638 nt of DNA, taken from assembly GCF_003334385.1 (NCBI RefSeq), contig NZ_QOWN01000157.1. One strand, 5' to 3'. The notes under the pieces are model-generated. The model saw nothing but the letters and a program-made list of their open reading frames with translations, was not told the DNA's origin and ran no database searches. Source of the stretch: Escherichia coli. Lineage in GTDB: Bacteria; Pseudomonadota; Gammaproteobacteria; Enterobacterales; Enterobacteriaceae. The position numbers and the translations under genes are program-made. Of the stretch, positions 1-638 are shown piece after piece; position 1 is the first letter of the stretch, and each line of letters starts with the position of its first letter.

Positions 1-638
1 TCAGAGCAGTCACCGCGGGTGGTGCTCTGGGAAATCGACCTGACGGTACAGGGCGGTGAGCGGTATTTTTTCTGTAATGAGCTGAATGAAAAAGGGGAGC
101 CGGTGACCTGGCAGGGGCGGCAATATCAGGCGTACCCGATTGAGGGGAGTGGCTTTGAGATGAACGGAAAGGGCAGCAGTGCCCGCCCGTCGCTGACGGT
201 GTCCAATCTGTTTGGTCTTGTCACCGGAATGGCGGAGGATTTGCAGAGCCTGGTGGGGGCCACGGTGGTCCGCCGCCGGGTGTATGCCCGTTTTCTGGAT
301 GCGGTGAATTTCGTTGCGGGCAATCCGGAGGCGGACCCGGAGCAGGAGCTGAGTGACCGCTGGGTGGTGGAGCAGATGTCGGAGCTGACAGCCATGACGG
401 CCTCGTTTGTGCTGGCGACACCGACGGAGACGGACGGTGCGCTGTTTCCCGGTCGCATCATGCTGGCGAACACCTGTATGTGGGATTACCGGGGAGATGA
501 ATGCGGGTATAACGGTCCTGCGGTGGCGGATGAGTTCGACAACCCCACCACGGATATCCGTAAGGACAGATGCAGCAAGTGCATGCGCGGGTGTGAACTG
601 CGCAGGAATGTCGGCAATTTTGGCGGTTTCCTTTCCAT
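1..638 (+). CDS. L: Phage minor tail protein L (lambda gpL family, tail-tip assembly protein); partial at both 5' and 3' ends, internal fragment in frame 1
   Basis: Seen in sequence: frame +1 (codons 1-3, 4-6, ...) is open for all 212 complete codons, with no in-frame stop. The translation contains long stretches I recognise from lambda gpL, recalled from memory and not from a database search: VVLWEIDLT, GERYFFCNE, EKGEPVTWQGRQYQ, GSGFE, NGKG, RP(S/T)LTVSNL, VTGMAED, QSLVG, TVVRR, VYARFLDAVNFV, ADPEQE, ASFVL, TPTETDGA, FPGRIMLANTC, YRGDECGY, GPAVADE, CSKC and RNVGNFGGFLS. Codon usage is GC3-rich and enterobacterial-phage-like. No start codon is expected in the window because the N-terminus lies upstream. 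Confidence 0.92.
475..594 (+). other. Cysteine-rich C-terminal region of gpL-like protein (5 Cys within 40 codons), a candidate iron-sulfur cluster binding segment
   Basis: Seen in sequence: Cys codons at 475-477 (tgt), 502-504 (tgc), 571-573 (tgc), 580-582 (tgc) and 592-594 (tgt), in the context TCMWDYRGDECGY...DRCSKCMRGCEL. Established knowledge: the C-terminal domain of lambda gpL-family tail tip proteins has been reported to coordinate an iron-sulfur cluster through conserved cysteines. Which four of the five act as ligands is not determinable from sequence alone. Confidence 0.6.

Follow-up and report, generated by a model that had tools for sequence, protein, structure and literature searches.

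The stretch of Escherichia coli DNA considered here (638 nt, hereafter the window) raises the question whether the cysteines gathered toward the end of its reading frame mark an iron-sulfur domain in a phage tail-tip protein and, if so, which of them would hold the cluster. The answer in which we place high confidence is that the window encodes a standard lambdoid gpL, in which four of the five C-terminal cysteines hold one predicted [4Fe-4S] cluster, probably with a structural function, and the fifth is a clade-specific extra.

A gene L fragment of lambdoid prophage type

Frame +1 runs without a stop across all 212 codons of the window, containing neither a start nor a stop codon, and the other two forward frames are interrupted by many stops. 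The encoded protein is gpL. Aligned by BLASTP with gpL of phage lambda (NC_001416; NP_040597.1) it shows 168 identities over 212 residues (79%), with zero gaps and an offset of +14, window residues 1-212 corresponding to lambda residues 15-226, and the two proteins are colinear from end to end, with the hub domain first and the cysteine-rich domain after it. The NCBIfam equivalog TIGR01600 (phage_tail_L) was matched with 362.3 bits vs. a cut-off of 70.75 (profile positions 5-220 of 224), Pfam PF05100 with an E-value of 3.1e-92 (model positions 3-202 of 206), and PHROG 18 and PHROG 4199, both described as "minor tail protein," were matched as well. Among solved structures, PDB chain 8iyk_L ("Tail tip protein L") aligned over its residues 16-226 with query residues 2-212 (E 1.6e-118), and the entries of lambda tail tip protein L that were matched comprise 8IYK, 8IYL, 8K35, 8XCG, and 9E7M.

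The whole window (positions 1-638, plus strand) covers codons 15-226 of the 232 codons of gene L, annotated as tail tip protein L or minor tail protein L, and the final six residues of gpL fall outside it. Positions 1-417 (plus strand) encode the N-terminal hub domain HDI, i.e., codons 1-139 or lambda residues 15-153 in gap-free alignment, and positions 418-636 (plus strand) encode the C-terminal [4Fe-4S] domain as defined for lambda (PMC10721106; PMC11101478), i.e., codons 140-212 or lambda residues 154-226; the latter is 81% identical to the lambda domain. Three minus-strand open reading frames (126-473, 221-421, and 486-638; 115, 66, and 50 aa) lie opposite the gpL frame, and a PHROG search with them returned zero matches at E ≤ 0.1; they were taken as shadow ORFs in GC-rich coding sequence. 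A search of both strands of the window against Rfam gave zero matches at E ≤ 1.

Judged from its protein and nucleotide matches, the window comes from the interior of a gene L copy in an E. coli lambdoid prophage. With respect to lambda it differs by 44 amino-acid substitutions and its DNA identity is 75.6%; its closest DNA relatives are not lambda itself but Stx-converting phages and E. coli prophages. Stx1- and Stx2-converting lambdoid phages show 96-98% DNA identity to the window, the best match among E. coli chromosomal prophages reaches 99.2%, and the L genes of phage 2851, of Stx2a_WGPS6 and of E. coli strain EC2 represent the same gene, their DNA being 96-99% identical to the window along its full length. 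The EC2 product (WP_115187404.1, "phage minor tail protein L," 232 codons) is 100% identical to the window translation over its residues 15-226. The EC2 locus, 99.2% identical to the window, carries in succession the tape measure gene, an M-position tail protein, L, a C40 peptidase (K), a tail assembly protein (I), and J; in this locus, and hence outside the 638-nt window itself, gene L lies between M and K-I-J, in the same M-L-K-I-J order as in lambda.

Of 5,426 complete E. coli genomes, 1,929 (about a third) carry matches to the window gene, at 6,590 places in total, with a median of two copies per genome and a maximum of 12, a multi-copy state that arises because lambdoid prophages are stacked in EHEC-type strains. 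Sixteen of these places are on plasmids. The number of copies invites the reading that the window copy belongs to a defective prophage and is decaying, with cysteines inherited without current selection; many lambdoid prophages are indeed defective, and some close relatives of the window gene are fused, truncated or devoid of one ligand cysteine. However, the frame is intact over its 212 codons, the identical protein occurs in EC2 within a complete-looking tail module, and the codon differences from lambda are biased to synonymous changes (71 synonymous, 44 non-synonymous), an excess that points to purifying selection on gene L. What the sequence encodes would moreover be unchanged either way. 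We therefore consider a decaying copy unlikely, and the identification as gpL is unaffected by this or by either of the two further alternatives weighed below, both of them also unlikely.

Position and conservation of the cysteines

Cysteines occur in the window protein at codons 25, 159, 168, 191, 194, and 198. The original prediction described the last five, together with the motifs ANTC, RGDECGY, and CSKC, and all of them were found in frame +1 where it had placed them; the resemblance to lambda gpL that it noted is borne out by the BLASTP alignment, in which LANTC, YRGDECGY, CSKC, and GC are identical residue for residue. Its statement that the five cysteines are packed into the last ~40 codons of the window needs a small correction, as they do span 40 codons (159-198) but 14 further window codons follow. 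By composition alone this clustering is only modestly unusual, at least five cysteines within 40 residues being obtained in 2,042 of 100,000 composition shuffles (p about 0.02), and with so weak a statistic the case for the site rests on homology and conservation.

All cysteine codons lie on the plus strand. Codon 159 (positions 475-477, in ANTC) corresponds to lambda Cys173, codon 168 (502-504, in RGDECGY) to Cys182, codon 191 (571-573, the first cysteine of CSKC) to Cys205, and codon 198 (592-594) to Cys212; these four are conserved, and their lambda counterparts are the cluster ligands reported in PMC10721106. Codon 194 (580-582, the second cysteine of CSKC) corresponds to lambda Cys208 and appears to be a lineage-specific, non-ligand residue. 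Codon 25 (73-75, read from the open-frame translation) corresponds to lambda Cys39 and belongs to the N-terminal domain, outside the cluster site; it is kept in close relatives and replaced by His in 40 of the 71 distant homologs listed. A further lambda cysteine, Cys140 in EQCSEL, is Met in the window (codon 126, positions 376-378).

The preservation of every cysteine in a diverged homolog had been put forward as a sign of functional constraint. The window protein is, however, not strongly diverged from lambda gpL: at 79% identity and the average rate of retention, the chance of keeping all of five given residues is about 31%, so that retention in the window itself says little and the argument is carried by the family alignment. 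For this purpose 266 homologs were pooled from a search of a 90%-clustered database and an exhaustive scan through 1.84 billion representatives of 50% clusters, the latter yielding 2,323 matches at E ≤ 0.001, the best 150 of which were used. Cysteines were counted in alignments made by phmmer with the window protein as anchor, in which 225 of the 266 homologs span all five C-terminal positions; among the matches listed, the 71 with less than 45% identity were regarded as distant. Cysteine was found at codon 191 in 225/225 homologs listed, at codon 198 in 224/225, at codon 168 in 221/225, and at codon 159 in 219/225; below 45% identity the first three positions were cysteine in 71/71 and codon 159 in 69/71. 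At codon 194, by comparison, cysteine was present in 146/225 listed homologs and in only 2/71 of the distant ones, where Arg (39), Thr (13), and Ser (9) prevailed.

A further view was offered by alignment A1 (MAFFT, 42 full-length proteins with 33-91% identity to the query, mean column identity 40%), in which nine columns are invariant. The cysteines C173, C182, C205, and C212 (lambda numbering) occupy four of these, an overlap between nine invariant columns and six cysteines among 232 positions that has a hypergeometric p of 1.6e-5; C208 is not one of the nine and is cysteine in 12/42 sequences. The spacing C-x8-C-x22-C-x6-C occurs in 30/42 sequences, its last element C-x6-C in 42/42. The four cysteines are likewise present in all four solved homologs compared, namely lambda gpL, the F2-pyocin BHP, the T1 minor tail protein, and the hub protein gp21, and the fifth is missing from the F2-pyocin and T1 proteins and present in that of gp21 (23gd_C), as CGGC. 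In these alignments the four putative ligand cysteines are essentially invariant and the cysteine of codon 194 is a clade-specific extra. The alignment check suggested with the original prediction thus upholds four of its five cysteines and, with them, the argument of constraint, which fails at codon 194.

A small number of sequences depart from this pattern. A few close gpL relatives lack one ligand cysteine (C159 replaced by V, T or H; C168 by R, D or V; C198 by V), and singleton E. coli entries labeled gpL (e.g., P0045, P0048, P0051, P0056, P0111) carry unrelated N-terminal PF05876, PF03864, PF00877 or PF14464 domains; both kinds probably stem from chimeric assembly, from frameshifts or from the decay of prophage copies.

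The counts at codon 194 also bear on whether all five C-terminal cysteines might be required, with Cys194 serving as an alternative or exchangeable ligand or as a redox partner of Cys191. The residue is retained in 140/143 listed homologs with more than 60% identity, lies only three residues past the ligand Cys191, and recurs in the distant solved chain 23gd_C. High retention among close relatives is, nevertheless, what shared ancestry predicts, the residue is nearly absent and mostly replaced by Arg, Thr or Ser below 45% identity, and the lambda model places Cys173, Cys182, Cys205, and Cys212 alone around the cluster (PMC10721106). A five-ligand site was rejected on the lambda cryo-EM ligand set and the non-conservation of Cys194, and we hold it to be very improbable. 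Cys194 instead appears confined to the lambda-like clade, with an independent recurrence in 23gd_C. Only as a long shot might its CxxC arrangement with Cys191 allow it to stand in for, or exchange with, a ligand, or to act as a redox-sensitive partner tuning the stability or oxygen sensitivity of the cluster at the exposed surface of the tip.

The iron-sulfur site and the predicted structure

Four-cysteine sites with CxxC-like elements are common among zinc-binding sites, and the window has such an element in CSKC. Since sequence by itself cannot tell metals apart, the four or five cysteines could in principle be zinc ligands or be paired in disulfides stapling the domain, instead of holding an iron-sulfur cluster. 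The evidence from lambda and its relatives points elsewhere. An oxygen-sensitive [4Fe-4S]2+ cluster was demonstrated biochemically in gpL of lambda and homologs, according to the account of Tam et al. (2013) given in PMC10721106, and the lambda protein shares with the window the same cysteine motifs and 79% of its residues. In the lambda cryo-EM map, extra density amid Cys173, Cys182, Cys205, and Cys212 was modeled as the cluster, Cys208 not being one of the four cysteines modeled around it, within a C-terminal domain delimited as residues 154-232 (PMC10721106); the convergence of the four thiols in cluster-binding geometry is thus documented for the lambda protein. Iron-sulfur density in the lambda tail tip was also described in PMC11101478, where the domains are named HDI and 4Fe-4S, and the hub of RcGTA shows such density with the same four-cysteine site (PMC7296036); the density in lambda and RcGTA is of cluster size and lies between the four cysteines (PMC10721106; PMC7296036). 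The second cysteine of the CxxC element is, in addition, the unconserved one, which argues against a zinc knuckle built on it. On the lambda biochemistry and cryo-EM a zinc or disulfide site was rejected, and it is extremely improbable.

T1 gp36 is suspected of carrying the same site (PMC11945409). The central claim of the original prediction, an iron-sulfur C-terminal domain in a tail-tip protein, is therefore supported by the homology with gpL and by the published [4Fe-4S] domain, with four of the five cysteines as the ligands, at codons 159, 168, 191, and 198. By analogy with lambda, the window protein, at 79% identity, would bind the cluster in the same manner. The iron-sulfur site of gpL is already known: its description dates from 2013, and cryo-EM maps have shown it since 2020.

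A model of the full-length EC2 protein, window-identical over residues 15-226, was obtained with AlphaFold2 using alignment A1 as input. Its mean pLDDT was 78.7, with values of about 90 over residues 21-150 and of 76-90 over residues 171-220, and confidence was low over the linker (158-167) and the last nine residues. Apart from a short helix (209-214), the modeled C-terminal domain is nearly devoid of regular secondary structure, a feature that would fit a fold organized around a cofactor. The best Foldseek match of the model in the PDB was 8iyk_L (E 1.2e-36, 232 aligned columns); next in order came hub proteins from T1, Chi, Sf11, JBD30, RcGTA, R4C, and T5. The full chain superposed only loosely on 8iyk_L (TM 0.60, rmsd 15.7 Å), presumably because the two domains are arranged differently in a free monomer and in the assembled tip. 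The linker ETDGALFPGR (window positions 430-459, codons 144-153, residues 158-167) is the sole internal stretch with pLDDT below 50, and its residues P164 and R166 are nearly invariant in A1; the connection between hub and iron-sulfur domains may be ordered in the assembled tip only.

The cluster domain in the tail tip and across the family

In a siphophage tail of lambda type, the conical tip lies below the gpM ring and is built from three copies each of gpL and gpJ, together with gpI and the C-terminal end of gpH. The N-terminal two thirds of gpL make up the hub domain HDI, and the C-terminal ~80 residues would fold into a small domain around one [4Fe-4S] cluster, held by the cysteines of the C-x8-C-x22-C-x6-C arrangement. 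The cluster would most likely serve as a structural core of this loop-rich domain, a staple favoring the stable assembly of gpL with gpJ. A stabilizing role has been proposed (PMC7291167; PMC11945409), and the earlier remark that the role of the cluster is not fully settled agrees with the literature (PMC10721106; PMC7291167). [quoted passage not shown] In the window phage the corresponding module might similarly swing outward, together with gpJ HDII-ins1, as the tip opens following receptor binding. Hubs resembling gpL that have no cluster or cysteine site exist (PMC13243795), so that members of the fold family can do without it.

The layout of the window protein is that of lambda gpL, with the HDI and 4Fe-4S domains in the same order and the five C-terminal cysteines and Cys39 present in both. 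The hub fold and the four-cysteine site are shared with the T1 minor tail protein (9L9P_J), the F2-pyocin BHP (25VF_7), gp21 (23GD_C), and RcGTA gp13 (6TBA), which differ in having 13-40% identity and insertions around the cysteine site. In RcGTA the iron-binding domain of the hub accommodates an oligosaccharide-binding insertion (PMC7296036). Distant homologs of 380-650 aa (P0196, P0246, P0249, P0260, and ~30 others among those listed) match the query in two stretches, at about residues 7-107 and 105-210, a pattern that implies, at the level of the alignments, a large domain inserted between the hub and iron-sulfur domains; this may be the same kind of elaboration as the RcGTA insertion. A full gpL-like module was also observed at the C-terminus of very long proteins (P0204, 2258 aa, residues 2043-2251; P0186, 1170 aa; P0244, 1171 aa), for which fusion to a tail gene located upstream (tape measure or distal tail protein) and an artefact of gene calling are both conceivable.

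The finding of the original prediction is correct but ordinary, as it concerns a feature already known and very common. The window sequence offers no special handle on the purpose of an oxygen-sensitive [4Fe-4S] cluster at the surface of a virion tail tip, and it is best regarded as an unremarkable example of a textbook phage gene, whose importance lies mostly in its correct annotation. As a by-product, the comparison across the family cleanly tells the four ligand cysteines apart from the non-conserved fifth.
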